A stretch of 64,000 nt of DNA from a virus: IMG/VR virus record IMGVR_UViG_3300009314_000003, positions 83,989-147,988 of that record; one strand, written 5' to 3'. The notes below the pieces were generated by a model. It ran no database searches. It was not told where the DNA came from and worked only from the letters and a program-made list of their open reading frames with translations. Made by a program: the position numbers and the translations under genes. Position 1 is the stretch's first letter, and every line of letters begins with the position of its first letter. Below, in pieces: positions 55,795-62,835 of this stretch.

Positions 55795-58700
55795 TTATAT
55801 CTCACAGGCATCTCCATCGCAAAACTTATCTGGGATTATCTCATGGTCCTTCATCCTACCAAATCGCAGTGGTTTTAACTTGCTTATCATATTATTGTAT
55901 GTGTCCTCATCTATCTCTTCATAAGGCATCTGTTTATAGGCCCCACCTGGTATACGGGGCAGAAACGTAACAGCCTTCAACTGATACTGAAAGTACTCAA
56001 GTGCCTGCTTTAAACATGGCCCCTCTGTAACAGGGTCAAATTGAACAGTTGCACTGACACTTTGATCAGCCCAATATCTCTGCGCCAACGCTGCGAGGCT
56101 AAGCTGTTCCCACATAGAAACATCGCGGCCAGTACGAACACTCTTACCAGCGTCAACTGGAAACTCTACAACAACAGTCGTGTCTCCACCATCAGTTGCT
56201 TTCTCAACTTTATAACCAGCTGCTCTTATGGGCCCTAATAAATCACTATCCTTAGCCATTCTTACTCTACGTACATAAAAGCGCGACATTGGGAAATGGA
56301 TTCCTGGTGTACTTCCGGCCAATAGAGAAACCGATCCAGAGGGCTTGACGACGGTTGATTTAATAGACCTGGGAACTGCTAGCCAGTCCGAGTAAACCTT
56401 GTCATAATACTGAATTGTCTCATACCCGGTGGACATCCATTCCTTTAATTCATTAACGCTATGCTTAGCAAGAAACTGGGCCAGTCCGCTAATACTACAT
56501 CCTATACGCCTATTTCTAAGCATGACTCTATTACTCATTGGCCAGTGTGTGTTAACAAGCGTGACGGTTTTGGAATATAGATAAGCATACTTCAATGTTC
56601 GTTTCATATCCTCTATATCATCGTGTCTTGAAGGAAACACCTCTACAAGATTGCATAATTCTCCACCTCCTTCCAGAGTTGCCTCTCCACAGTTATGAAC
56701 AACGAAACCGTTAGCGTCAAAGGCATGTGCCTTGTTTACAACAGCATCGTACACACGTTCCATATTGTCTGGCTCAATCGAAGCCACCCTAACCACGAAT
56801 CGGCTCCGATTTAGTCTGCGTTTGTAACCAACCAGCAATTTGCGAAGTCGGTTGGCCTTGTCGGTGTGATTAAACCCCACATTCTGTTCAAAGAGGGCCA
56901 AATTATCACCTGATATAACCAGTTCGTGATTGGTCCTTGTCCAATATTTCTTCAACTCGCCATTACCATCAGGAAGGTATTTGTATCCCTCTTCTCTACG
57001 ATCCTGGTAGATAGTTGACATTATACCTATCCGAAGCAACATCCTCTGGATGACATTCAAGGTAACAAGATCAGATTGGCTAAGCCTTATGCTCACACCC
57101 TTACTATGAGTTCCCTGCACTGATCCAGCCACATCAAACATCCCTCTTATAAAACCGATATGGAATTTGCTGCTGGTATACTCTACGCCTTGGTCAAGAT
57201 GCTTATGCCCTTTGTGAATTCCAAATTGACCGGCTAGTGAACACAGAGAGGTCATACGAATTTTATTGGTCAGATAACCATTACCTACCCGAAGGCCCAG
57301 CAAGTAACCTTCCCCCTCTGTTCCTCTTCCTTCCCACTCATTCCGATCACGGTGGTTATTCATTACCAACATGTCACCAGGCCTCAACCTGCCTGCCCTT
57401 ACCCACTCAGAATATACTTTCTTCTGTGTGACTTTATTGGCCCTTAGAACTTTATGGTTATCAGTTACTCTGAGATGATACCCCTCTTTTGTCTCTATTC
57501 GCAGCACGTTTCTAACACCAGTGCTGAAGAAACCAGTTTGGCACTCATACTGCTCGGAGTTAACTATAGCCCTAAATGGCTTGCCGATTAACTCCGATAC
57601 TTGTTTTGGTCCGGCTTCTGTGCTAATCAGAGTATCTCCGGTGACGCAAGGATTGCAGCCCATCACACGGGAGTCCTCACGAGTACGGCCATTATTCATT
57701 AAACCATAATCACGCATATTATCCAACCAGACAAGCCCAGGTTCACCATTTCTCCGTATCCTATCACAAATTGGTCCATAATCAATACCAGGCCTAACTA
57801 CAACAGAATTATTACTACTCCACCCAAACGACTCCCTGTAGGGGTTAATATCGTAGTTCTTCAAATCTAGGTACTCGTCCTTATTACATGGGCCGAGGCT
57901 GAGAAGCGCACTGTTATGAACTAATAGACCGTCTTGAATAATAAATTCATTTGCTCCGGGAACACTAATATCGTATGTCGGTAATACTTTTCCTGTTAAT
58001 TCTATCTTAATTACTTCAATAGGAATTAGAGTTGTTGTTTCGTCTGAATAATGATCATAGGCAGAAGTTACAATTTGTTTACACGAGAGAGTCCCTGAAC
58101 GAGATCTAAACCCCTTCATTAGCTGTTTATCTTGCTTTAACCACTCAGTAGGATACCCGTAATCGTGTTGAGAACACTTCAAGCCCTTAGTTTGAATTCT
58201 ATATTTAATAGCGTACTCTGCCACCTTATCTTCAAACACTGATTCAGCAATTGGGCCTACTACATTTAAATTAAATATATCTTGCCACGAGTCATTGCGG
58301 GATGGGAACGTACCATCTTTAAGGCGGGTTGGAATACCCAAACTAGCATACACCGACTGTACTTCTCTCAAGAATACATGATAAACACTTGTTACCGCAT
58401 TTAATGGACGTGTTTTACAACCCCCATCGGCATCAAACAGGCCGGCTAAGTACGCTGCACGAATTTTAGGACGCCCTTGCATAATAAAATCAGGCACACG
58501 CATGGGCTCATTAGGCTTCTTAATTTGGCTCAAGTATAGGGCCAATTGTTTAGACTGGGATCTAATCTTTATAGACCCATCTTTAGATGATGGCTTAACT
58601 TCGTTAATCTTAGTACCAAAGCGTAGTATTTGCGATCTCACTTTATGGTGCATTCCATACTCATCACCTGGACAAGCAATTGAAATGTGTGCATTAAATC

Positions 58701-59964
58701 CATTCTTAGGCTCATTTGTATATACATAGCCGTCACCTTGTAGGTAACCGATGAACCAAGCCATGTCTGTATCAAGTTCTGGAATAGCAATATCAACGCA
58801 CGTTGTAGAGTTAGTTGGTTTTTGATAAGACCAAGACGGAAGTTTGGTCAAATGTCCTTCTACTTCATGTTTTGGAAATACCAACCTATCTCCGGATGAA
58901 ATATTCGCAGCGCACTTCCAGGTATATTTACCCGGAGCTTCCAATACAGCTAATTTATGGGCCCCAGTACAAGATAATATTCCCAGTTGGGTGTGAATAT
59001 CAATTAATTTCTGGTCACCTTGTTCTATAAGTTCCGATACAGTGGCAACTCCATCTGAAGTATAAACAGTTGTACCGGGGATTACATCTTGGATAGGAAT
59101 TAATCCATTCTTACAATGAACTAATGTATCTTTAGGCAAACAGCGTCTAATATTCCCACTTACAACGCAGCGACCAATAAGATTCATAATATCAACAATC
59201 GTAGTAATCGAAATAAGGTTGCCGGTGTTTCTTTCTAGCACGCCAATAATAGATTTGTGCAACTCAGTTAGTGGAGCAGAGCCAGAACTAACGCCACCAA
59301 AACCCTTAATGGCCTCGCCGGCAGGTCTGATCTCACTGTAATCAAAGTTCCAACTGCGTGTATTATCAAAGTATGACTCTAGCAAAAGCCTGACAGATTT
59401 TACCCAACCCTCACGGGTGTCTGGGATAATGTATGTCTCCGACTCTAAATCTTTGTTTGGGCCTTTGATAACAACCTTACCTGCACCCAATGTGTCAAAT
59501 CCTACACCAATGCCAATCATAGAGGCATCCATAGTAAAGCAGAATGGATATACAGGGTCTTCCTTTAAAGCTTCGGTTGAAATGAAGGCACAGTTGAAGA
59601 GACAACCAAAAAGGCCTTTCTCCTCAGTTAAGATACTACCCATATGTTGGAGTCCCCTGCCGGGCGGTAGAAACTTCATCTGAAATATCCGATTATACAT
59701 GTCCTGGGCCGACCACTGCGCCTTTTGTGGATTCCAGCCCAAGTTGTATTTCTCGATGTGTCTCTTCTGCATATTGTAAATACCATTTACCACGCGGGCC
59801 GCCGTCTCCCACCAACGCTCATTCTCTTTATTTTCCTTTAGCCTGCTGTATGTTCTTAAGTAAACAACCTCACCGAGACCATTAAATCCCCACCCGGGGC
59901 TCTTCCACTTATACTTCTGCAAGAAGTTATCACTTAGCCTAAATGTTTTATCATCCTTCGTCAT
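55795..59964 (-). CDS. nrdJ: class II (B12-dependent, RTPR-like) ribonucleotide reductase with two inteins
   Basis: YLRTYSR, FLPPGRGL, FNC, NP|CGE, ELCNLVE, VKPSGSVSLLAG, C-terminal CDGDAC; 660 aa after removing the inteins. Confidence 0.95.
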   Translation of the reverse strand: MTKDDKTFRLSDNFLQKYKWKSPGWGFNGLGEVVYLRTYSRLKENKENERWWETAARVVNGIYNMQKRHIEKYNLGWNPQKAQWSAQDMYNRIFQMKFLPPGRGLQHMGSILTEEKGLFGCLFNCAFISTEALKEDPVYPFCFTMDASMIGIGVGFDTLGAGKVVIKGPNKDLESETYIIPDTREGWVKSVRLLLESYFDNTRSWNFDYSEIRPAGEAIKGFGGVSSGSAPLTELHKSIIGVLERNTGNLISITTIVDIMNLIGRCVVSGNIRRCLPKDTLVHCKNGLIPIQDVIPGTTVYTSDGVATVSELIEQGDQKLIDIHTQLGILSCTGAHKLAVLEAPGKYTWKCAANISSGDRLVFPKHEVEGHLTKLPSWSYQKPTNSTTCVDIAIPELDTDMAWFIGYLQGDGYVYTNEPKNGFNAHISIACPGDEYGMHHKVRSQILRFGTKINEVKPSSKDGSIKIRSQSKQLALYLSQIKKPNEPMRVPDFIMQGRPKIRAAYLAGLFDADGGCKTRPLNAVTSVYHVFLREVQSVYASLGIPTRLKDGTFPSRNDSWQDIFNLNVVGPIAESVFEDKVAEYAIKYRIQTKGLKCSQHDYGYPTEWLKQDKQLMKGFRSRSGTLSCKQIVTSAYDHYSDETTTLIPIEVIKIELTGKVLPTYDISVPGANEFIIQDGLLVHNSALLSLGPCNKDEYLDLKNYDINPYRESFGWSSNNSVVVRPGIDYGPICDRIRRNGEPGLVWLDNMRDYGLMNNGRTREDSRVMGCNPCVTGDTLISTEAGPKQVSELIGKPFRAIVNSEQYECQTGFFSTGVRNVLRIETKEGYHLRVTDNHKVLRANKVTQKKVYSEWVRAGRLRPGDMLVMNNHRDRNEWEGRGTEGEGYLLGLRVGNGYLTNKIRMTSLCSLAGQFGIHKGHKHLDQGVEYTSSKFHIGFIRGMFDVAGSVQGTHSKGVSIRLSQSDLVTLNVIQRMLLRIGIMSTIYQDRREEGYKYLPDGNGELKKYWTRTNHELVISGDNLALFEQNVGFNHTDKANRLRKLLVGYKRRLNRSRFVVRVASIEPDNMERVYDAVVNKAHAFDANGFVVHNCGEATLEGGGELCNLVEVFPSRHDDIEDMKRTLKYAYLYSKTVTLVNTHWPMSNRVMLRNRRIGCSISGLAQFLAKHSVNELKEWMSTGYETIQYYDKVYSDWLAVPRSIKSTVVKPSGSVSLLAGSTPGIHFPMSRFYVRRVRMAKDSDLLGPIRAAGYKVEKATDGGDTTVVVEFPVDAGKSVRTGRDVSMWEQLSLAALAQRYWADQSVSATVQFDPVTEGPCLKQALEYFQYQLKAVTFLPRIPGGAYKQMPYEEIDEDTYNNMISKLKPLRFGRMKDHEIIPDKFCDGDACEI
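56692..57648 (-). mobile_element. intein 2 (319 aa) at the RNR active-site NP|C, degenerate LAGLIDADG domain
   Basis: Starts CVTGDTLI, block B VTDNHKV, ends FVVHN|C; LAGLIDADG-like motifs LLGLRVGNG and IRGMFDVAG. Confidence 0.9.
57913..59142 (-). mobile_element. intein 1 (410 aa) at GNIRR|S with LAGLIDADG homing endonuclease
   Basis: Starts CLPKDTLV, block B CTGAHKL, motifs FIGYLQGDG and YLAGLFDADG, ends LLVHN|S. Confidence 0.92.
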
Positions 59965-61305: not shown

Positions 61306-61559
61306 TCACTCCTCCTCAAAGTATTCCTCGATCTCTTCCTTTACATCATTTATGTAGCATACAAGATTGTCCTTGGTATCAAGGGTTGTATTTGCAGCAA
61401 GTAATTCATCTTTAATACGCCTCAACAAACGTTCTGCTGGACTCTTCAATGCACTTACTGATGCAAAGTCTAGAGGACTGTCCACAAACTCTGGTAGGTC
61501 CTCTGCAAAACACTTCCCTGCTACATATTCTGCTGCAAGTTCAGGAGTATCAAAGTCAT
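61306..61559 (-). pseudogene. start-less ORF fragment abutting the IS end
   Basis: Open frame DFDTPELAAEYV...EEYFEEE*; joins in frame to KYIESTERN beyond the other IS end. Confidence 0.45.
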
Positions 61560-61589
61560 AAAATTTTAGGCAGGATACCCACTAATTTA

Positions 61590-62087
61590 TTAGTGGGAGG
61601 AATGCCGTACCTCCTCTATTATTCCTATTGTGCAATGTTGTGCTCCTCCGTGAGCAAATACACATAACTTTTTTAATATCGCTTTTCTTTTTTTCCCTAA
61701 AAATGTACTGTGATAACCAAACGATATAACTACCCCATCTGTTTTTAGGATTTGCGGTACTAAGTCAGCAATTTGCTTAAACTTTGAAGTATAATTACCA
61801 TTATACATTTCCATTGCTTTTCTATAAGCATAAGGTGGGTCTAATATTATTGTATCAAAACACATCTTATTCTTTATTGCATATTTTACAAAATCTAAAG
61901 CATCCATCTGAAAATCCTTTAATGCAACATCATCAATATCGTTTCTAATTTCATCAATATTAAGTTTAGTCTTTCCTGCAAATAGATTTAAACACTTACC
62001 TTTACTATTTTCTTCTACCCACTTTTTAATCTTAGGGGATTGAAATGTATATCTCCTTAAATTAGTATTTAACAATTCTAATTCCAT
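61590..62087 (-). CDS. small amino (N6-A/N4-C) DNA methyltransferase
   Basis: Motif I CLNLFAG and motif IV ILDPPY in 165 aa. Confidence 0.8.
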   Translation of the reverse strand: MELELLNTNLRRYTFQSPKIKKWVEENSKGKCLNLFAGKTKLNIDEIRNDIDDVALKDFQMDALDFVKYAIKNKMCFDTIILDPPYAYRKAMEMYNGNYTSKFKQIADLVPQILKTDGVVISFGYHSTFLGKKRKAILKKLCVFAHGGAQHCTIGIIEEVRHSSH

Positions 62088-62645
62088 TTAGAAACCTCCT
62101 AACTTTGTTTGAACAAAGTTTCCTACTTTTTGTTGTGGACTTCCAAATACAGAATATTCAAAGACATCTTTCCCTTCTTGTTCAAGGATATATCTTTTTA
62201 CTGCATCTTGTGAAACGTGTCCTGCACTTCCACAATAATAACCTTTAGCCCAAAGGTTCTTGAATCCTGTTCCGAAGTGCTGTTTATATCCTAAATATTT
62301 GATGTCTTTGAAACATCTTCTTAATTGGATTGAAGTATTGCCTTTAAGTTGCTTAACTATCTTGAAAGGTGTGTGCTTTGGTTTAGCACCAACAAACAAA
62401 TGTATATGGTCTAGCATTACTTCTAACGCTAACATATCTAAATCCATCTGTTCGCATTGTCCTTGAATTATTGTTTTAAGCACTTCTGTCACCTTTCCAG
62501 TTAATACTTTCTTCCGATACTTCGGAATCCAAATGATGTGATAGTTGATGTTGAACTTGCAATGACTTCCAGTTCTGACAGTCGCTATCTTTACGTCTAA
62601 ATTGTATGTAGTTGGGTTGAAATGTGGATATTCGTGTTTTACCAT
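62088..62645 (-). CDS. tnpA: IS200/IS605 Y1 HUH transposase
   Basis: YHIIWIPKYRKKVL, HUH DHIHLFV, LKG, LWAKGYY, VKRYILEQ; GGAGGT RBS before ATG 62645. Confidence 0.95.
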   Translation of the reverse strand: MVKHEYPHFNPTTYNLDVKIATVRTGSHCKFNINYHIIWIPKYRKKVLTGKVTEVLKTIIQGQCEQMDLDMLALEVMLDHIHLFVGAKPKHTPFKIVKQLKGNTSIQLRRCFKDIKYLGYKQHFGTGFKNLWAKGYYCGSAGHVSQDAVKRYILEQEGKDVFEYSVFGSPQQKVGNFVQTKLGGF

Positions 62646-62779
62646 TGAGATTACCTCCACTTGGATAAGGTAATCTCTGGGAAAACCGATATACACTTTT
62701 CTGGAAACTACCGACTTTAGTCGGATTAGAGGATGTCATTTCTCTCCGTACTCTCAATATACTTTTCTTCCTTAGTTTT

Positions 62780-62810
62780 AAAAGCGACGGGGCCTGATAA
62801 GCCACGTCGC
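62780..62810 (-). terminator. intrinsic terminator after csp
   Basis: GCGACGTGGC TTATCAG GCCCCGTCGC followed by TTTT. Confidence 0.6.
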
Positions 62811-62835
62811 CTTCGCAACTACATGCAGGGCCTAA

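Follow-up and report, generated by a model that had tools for sequence, protein, structure and literature searches.

The window, as we call the whole stretch of DNA that was analyzed, is the final 64 kb of a 148-kb viral contig and contains what appears to be a 1180-bp insertion sequence at positions 61560-62739. The element sits between a cold-shock gene and a small orphan open reading frame (ORF), and the genes around it are on the minus strand. Its only ORFs are tnpA (62088-62645, minus strand) and a gene for a methyltransferase (61590-62087, minus strand). As predicted originally, the two genes are coupled (TAAATG) between two hairpins: the TAA stop codon of tnpA directly abuts the ATG of the methylase gene, leaving no room for a transposon end between them. 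GC content is ~43% in the flanks but only 36% in tnpA and 28-31% in the methylase gene (28-36% inside the element overall). The element has no terminal inverted repeats and has subterminal hairpins at both ends, thereby satisfying the criterion for the IS200/IS605 family. There is no tnpB or iscB with a guide RNA, either as an ORF inside the element or as an Rfam match, which fits the IS200 group with an added cargo gene and not the IS605 group.

The transposase is intact. TnpA is a Y1/HUH protein of 185 aa that likely starts at the ATG at 62645; the open frame (62088-62696) reaches a GTG at 62696. The protein matched Pfam Y1_Tnp (E = 1.3e-34) and, in the PDB, 2EC2 (2.6e-29), the ISHp608 transposase 2A6M (4e-17) and the ISDra2 transposase 2XM3 (1e-16). 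It is full length, and the HIH motif and the helix with the catalytic tyrosine align with the solved IS200/IS605 TnpA structures. An 87-codon frame (62476-62738, minus strand; also in another contig, L260:2407-2670) starts at the terminal ATG of the element (MTSSNPTKVGSF...) and runs out of frame over tnpA. It would be driven by a host ribosome-binding site ahead of the element and may be a by-product.

The second gene encodes a methyltransferase of the class I SAM type, 165 aa in length. Both motif I (LNLFAG) and motif IV (DPPY, residues 83-86) are invariant in 39 homologues, and the ~160 residues include no recognizable target-recognition domain. The protein matched the PHROG family phrog_11619, 'DNA methyltransferase' (E = 7e-29), and matches to Pfam N6_N4, Eco57I and Cons_hypoth95 were all below the cut-offs. 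An AlphaFold2 model (pLDDT 88.6) has a class I methylase fold, and the best Foldseek matches were the RsmD-like structures 2FHP, 2IFT and 2FPO. The nearest solved folds are thus RNA guanine-N2 (m2G) methylases of the RsmD and Trm11 types (TM 0.5-0.6); the PHROG and Atlas neighbors are phage proteins labeled as DNA or adenine methylases. The substrate is inferred, and by association with the sister cargoes described below, DNA is likelier than other substrates. A methylase that is 86% identical at the protein level lies elsewhere without insertion sequence ends (L321:730-1400), between copies of an ~80-nt direct repeat; this arrangement hints at another mode of acquisition.

The left, cargo-side end (LE; 61560-61610, plus strand) has a conserved two-helix structure. 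It consists of a 14-nt spacer, an outer helix (61569-61572 with 61603-61606), the guide GATA (61574-61577), a hairpin (CCCACTAA TTTA TTAGTGGG, 61578-61597) and a conserved AGGAA (61598-61602). The stop codon of the methylase gene (61590-61592) lies inside the hairpin, just as had been proposed. A DNA fold of the LE gives both helices, with an energy of -9.6 kcal/mol (z = -3.6). When 76 distinct copies were aligned without gaps, 90.7% of the cells were paired compared to 63.8% after shuffling, and the covariation score was 0.636, compared to 0.163 for shuffles and 0.04-0.12 for slid controls. There were compensatory changes in all six outer-helix pairs and in five of the eight hairpin pairs; the pattern used to select the copies fixed only conserved loop columns, not the covarying ones. 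With this pattern, 67 matching stretches were detected among viral contigs and more than 120 among contigs of cellular genomes, including many from DPANN archaea as well as Methanosarcina, Ktedonobacteria and Oligoflexus, so the motif is not confined to phages. Based on this recurrence (>60 viral and >120 cellular contigs) and the covariation, we conclude that the end motifs are beyond chance. Neither end of the element matches an Rfam family.

The same LE motif is found downstream of IscB (RRXRR+HNH) and IsrB-like genes in viral contigs. IscB genes (~420 aa) with the motif are present at L048/L082, L066/L095/L109 and other loci that match the pattern, and an IsrB-like gene is present at L108. 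The contigs are large (up to 394 kb), and some have two or three copies of the motif at different sites. One IMG/VR 'viral' contig with two copies shares its motif positions with a contig of nearly the same size that was binned as Candidatus Pacearchaeota (L097 and L144). In addition, a purine-rich, GGAGG-like run (sense strand) lies just ahead of the end motif in the window (61610-61618, plus-strand coordinates) and at the equivalent place in relatives. It is complementary to CCTCC in the motif and could give an alternative pairing in the mRNA.

The right, tnpA-side end (RE; 62704-62739, plus strand) is also conserved, with a weaker hairpin. The guide GAAA (62704-62707) is followed by an imperfect palindrome, CTA-CCGAC TTTA GTCGG-(AT)-TAG (62708-62729), then by the spacer AGGATG and the right cleavage site TCAT (62736-62739). 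The inner hairpin (CCGAC TTTA GTCGG, 62711-62724) has a 5-bp stem, and this is all that the minimum-energy fold of the window RE contains; the CTA/TAG extension is not predicted. Of the two guides noted originally as preceding the hairpins, GATA directly abuts the LE hairpin, and GAAA is 3 nt from the 5-bp stem and abuts the hairpin foot only if the CTA/TAG extension forms with an AT bulge. Among relatives, the inner stem covaries, the CTA/TAG extension is kept in ~50, and the foot, either CTA/TAG or CCC/GGG, is conserved. A 40-nt block of the RE is 92-97.5% identical in L029-31, L036, L041, L239 and L275, and ~68 distinct junctions have the tnpA-side end next to unrelated left flanks.

The positions of the guides and cleavage sites conform to the rule established for IS608. 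In that element, the cleavage sites are TTAC and TCAA, the guides AAAG and GAAT are each 5' of a hairpin foot, and the cuts are made 19 nt to the 5' side of the left hairpin and 10 nt to the 3' side of the right one (PMC5934647, PMC3201880). From PMC5934647, we worked out that cleavage-site and guide nucleotides pair as c1:g2, c2:g1 and c4:g4, and both ends of IS608 fit. Applied to GATA and GAAA, the rule gives TCxT in both cases, and TCAT is present at both cleavage sites, 62736-62739 within the element and 61556-61559 (plus strand) in the flank outside it. On the left, the plus strand reads TCAT, 14 nt, GATA and then the hairpin, a spacing of 18 nt compared to 19 nt in IS608. The repeated TCAT, the pairing and the left spacing had all been anticipated. 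The left TCAT is ATGA on the gene-sense strand. An N|ATGA target was mapped by means of empty sites for ISC1-1_MA and IS605B-1_MA (Kapitonov 2016, PMC4810608). N|ATGA is TCAT| on the opposite strand, so the window element agrees with the ISC/IS605B target group.

The active (top) strand is the plus strand of the window, antisense to both genes. Among the non-Watson-Crick positions in 31 distinct LE hairpins, 15 were G.T on the plus strand and 2 were G.T on the sense strand. We place the fold on the plus strand based on this asymmetry, the orientation of IscB relative to the motif, and the published N|ATGA target. Support for strand-specific, single-strand transposition is indirect only, coming from the wobbles. 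We considered the sense strand because AAATGA at the tnpA side is among the conserved positions. We rejected it: the guides would predict GAxA or TAxA, neither of which was found, the spacings would be reversed relative to those of IS608, the wobbles are on the other strand, and the orientation of IscB and the published target fit the plus strand.

Copies at other sites define the limits of the element. Finding further copies of tnpA and the methylase gene with the same ends had been proposed as a check, and two are present. One (L260) matches the window at 96.8% identity, starting exactly at 62739 and continuing inward; upstream, its flank is unrelated and has AGGAGG plus 7 nt just ahead of the ATGA. 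The other (L322), at a different site, has 83% identity over the region from inside tnpA, across the methylase gene and the end motif, to 61556, and a 265-aa host gene begins at its flanking ATGA. Three more loci have both ends around the methylase gene without tnpA (L028, 91% identical; L320, 90%; L058, 41% at the protein level). Similarity to other elements ends at 61556 and at 62739-62741. With no empty site in the data, we fixed the limits by these breaks, and they coincide with the boundaries 61560-62739 that had been assigned originally. A methylase gene at this locus without tnpA in relatives was to have refuted the prediction, but in the three loci that lack tnpA the methylase gene is still between the same ends. 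The methylase gene of the window lies within the ends as cargo and occupies the position of TnpB or IscB. The two copies and the ~68 distinct left junctions at the tnpA-side end satisfy the criterion for mobility, copies at different sites. Derivatives without tnpA retain its last 16-60 codons (L041:3010-3186, L044:4-126, L101 and L320:40-88), a stretch that includes the ribosome-binding site of the cargo gene.

We found no empty site. The 148-kb contig has only one copy of the element, and the contigs of the same phage that we examined, from five samples, have it at the same place. Empty-site alleles, which had been suggested as a check, were absent among those contigs that carry the flanking host gene, and a 24-mer of the predicted empty junction was absent from metagenome contigs. 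Relatives of the phage could not be used because the host ORF has no homologue anywhere, and a DNA search of the phage GenBank collection matched only the cold-shock gene. Without an empty site, and with TCAT at both ends, a 4-bp duplication is not excluded in the window. The tetranucleotides of L028 differ from each other (TTAT and TCAT), which argues against target duplication.

Whether the element interrupts a host gene is not established. The host frame downstream (61306-61555, minus strand) contains a predicted 59-aa gene (start GTG at 61485) and stays open over 83 codons as far as the junction; its only database match is itself, on 14 contigs. The upstream flank (62740-62822, minus strand) contains the terminator of the cold-shock gene (inverted repeat I3) and then GGAGAG-AA directly before the terminal ATGA, a position at which relatives often have a Shine-Dalgarno sequence. 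Deleting 61560-62739 in silico does produce one open frame (27 + 83 codons), as had been claimed. The 27 upstream codons contain no ATG or GTG, and the only TTG is within the terminator of the cold-shock gene. Since the joined frame lacks a normal start, a split host gene is possible and unproven. The frame that begins at the flanking ATG in the window is only 12 codons. Elsewhere in the window, a gene for a 1389-aa ribonucleotide reductase (55795-59964, minus strand) bears intein and homing-endonuclease domains, and this phage thus holds several kinds of selfish element.

Many related elements are found at the starts of genes or at start/stop junctions. ATGA was present 11-14 nt after the LE motif in 54 of 58 viral loci and after the motif in 48 of 52 TnpA loci. 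In 32 of 48 cases, the ATG of the flanking ATGA is the start codon of the ORF that follows. At the other end, the TGA of the terminal ATGA is the stop codon of an upstream ORF of 40 codons or more at 16 of 68 junctions; one control frame gave 3. Because ATGA also forms the beginning of the element, both neighbors keep their codons when insertion is at a gene start or at a start/stop overlap. It is not known whether this reflects targeting or merely the survival of harmless insertions. Two elements adjoin at one locus (L320:560-792), where the cargo-side end of the first and the tnpA-side end of the second meet at a common ATGA. The terminal TCAT of an element can thus itself act as a target and produce tandem arrays. 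About 120 nt further along is an inverted copy of the end motif.

The pairing of this type of transposase with a cargo gene is widespread. More than 504 metagenome stretches encode relatives of the window TnpA. In the best 80 of these (68-96% identity), wherever enough sequence was available, a cargo ORF nearly always began within a few bases of the tnpA stop codon, and the end motif was 430-1200 nt beyond. Pfam searches with 49 cargo proteins identified N6_N4_Mtase (14), C5 DNA_methylase (8) and MT-A70 (3) domains, and one each of Dam, N6_Mtase, D12 methylase, PAPS reductase, EcoRV endonuclease and GIY-YIG; most of the 49 have a DNA methyltransferase label in PHROGs. The picture is similar for viral loci, which also include short, transposase-less elements with a methylase gene only. 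The EcoRV-type restriction endonuclease (E = 2e-68) and the GIY-YIG nuclease in this cargo alignment (L238-L317) show that not every cargo is a protective methylase. Literature searches for IS200/IS605 elements with methylase cargo found nothing relevant. The window element belongs to a large and apparently undescribed group in which almost every transposase has an exchangeable gene for DNA modification as its partner.

Based on the intact Y1 transposase, the end structures, the agreement with the guide rule, and the copies elsewhere, all of which bear out the original assignment to the IS200/IS605 family, we believe (with a probability of roughly 0.8) that the window contains an autonomous, ISC-type insertion sequence of the TCAT/ATGA-target group that consists of a Y1/HUH transposase gene and one translationally coupled gene for a minimal DPPY methyltransferase. 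Neither transposition nor methylation has been observed. The methylase gene could instead be a resident phage gene beside which a tnpA-only IS200 element landed, and its family is in fact widespread in phage contigs without a nearby tnpA. We consider this very improbable: there is no space for an end between the two genes, the conserved LE comes after the methylase gene, L322 repeats the order tnpA, methylase and LE elsewhere, L028, L058 and L320 retain both ends around the methylase gene alone, and that gene has the lowest GC content of the region. We give still less credence, indeed hardly any, to the idea that the hairpins are terminators or translational controls of phage genes. Each is located at the boundary of a gene, and one includes a stop codon, but the wobble asymmetry indicates folding on the antisense strand, the motifs accompany IscB and TnpA in unrelated genomes, and there is no match to an Rfam family.

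Two other possibilities concern what the element does now. It might be a fixed relic that is no longer mobile, with the methylase kept as an ordinary phage gene and tnpA idle or decaying. The single copy at one site in contigs from five samples, the lack of an empty site and the weak RE hairpin are compatible with this. It seems improbable to us, but not negligible, given that TnpA has kept its HUH motif, tyrosine and full length, both guides and both TCAT sites are intact, and a 97% identical copy is present elsewhere (L260). Alternatively, the cargo might methylate RNA (guanine-N2 of rRNA or tRNA) or another substrate and serve host takeover and not anti-restriction. The best structural and profile matches are to RNA methylases of the RsmD, RlmI, TrmN and Trm11 types, and one source labels homologues 'tRNA G10 N-methylase Trm11'. 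This remains a serious possibility, if an unlikely one, because the PHROG and Atlas neighbors are labeled as phage DNA or adenine methylases, and the DNA methylases of sister elements are unambiguous and belong to several families.

If the element is a mobile insertion sequence with a DNA methylase as cargo, then by analogy with IS608, TnpA would bind the two subterminal hairpins on the single-stranded plus strand. The guides GATA and GAAA are predicted, on the same analogy, to pair with TCAT, and each end would be cut 3' of TCAT. This would release a single-strand circle that could be re-inserted 3' of another TCAT. The cargo, whose activity is inferred and has not been demonstrated, would methylate phage DNA. 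Methylation, if it occurs, may shield the phage from host restriction, and the element would be kept by selection and not by RNA-guided homing.

Elements of the IS200/IS605 family are regarded as minimal, cargo-free transposons in which TnpB or IscB is thought to secure persistence by RNA-guided homing. The elements described here would be a branch of the family in which the nuclease has been swapped for a methylase or another DNA-modification gene, with a suggested second route to persistence: paying the host phage with protection from restriction. We lean, with only a little more confidence than doubt, toward the broader view that there is a large IS200/IS605 clade with ISC-type ends and a TCAT target, found in phages and DPANN-binned contigs, in which a single, interchangeable gene for DNA modification is systematically coupled to the transposase gene (methylases of at least eight families, PAPS reductases, a radical-SAM protein and a few nucleases), insertion at ATGA starts or start/stop junctions is scarless, and persistence comes from the benefit of the cargo to the carrier genome as an alternative to homing by TnpB or IscB. 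Such small, self-contained elements (1.2-2 kb), with a 4-nt, DNA-guided target and insertion at start codons without breaking genes, would explain how orphan methylases move between unrelated phages.

The window element resembles IS608 (ISHp608) and ISDra2 in having a Y1/HUH TnpA, subterminal hairpins, a 4-nt guide 5' of each hairpin that is predicted to pair with the cleavage site, and what is inferred to be insertion 3' of a tetranucleotide without duplication. It differs from both in several respects: the target is TCAT and not TTAC or TTGAT, both genes are on the strand opposite the active one, the LE has an additional covarying outer helix, TnpA has N- and C-terminal extensions, and the second gene encodes a methylase and not TnpB. 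In addition, the RE spacing is 6 nt from the extended foot, compared to 10 nt in IS608.

There are also parallels in target and organization with the ISC and IS605B elements (Kapitonov 2016, PMC4810608), which share the target tetranucleotide and in which iscB has the same orientation relative to the ends; the LE motif of the window element also follows IscB and IsrB genes in viral contigs. In contrast, ISC and IS605B elements carry IscB or TnpB and are mostly non-autonomous, and methyltransferases are not mentioned in that work (PMC4810608). Like IS200, the window element is small and without an RNA-guided nuclease, whereas IS200 has tnpA alone. The methylase is a stand-alone phage gene like those for orphan phage DNA methyltransferases, and it shares the class I SAM fold and (D/N)PPY amino-methylase motif of RsmD-type enzymes. 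Unlike these, it has only ~160 residues, lacks a recognizable target-recognition domain, and is inside a transposon. In bearing a passenger gene, the element is similar to the cargo-carrying 'transporter' insertion sequences of other families.
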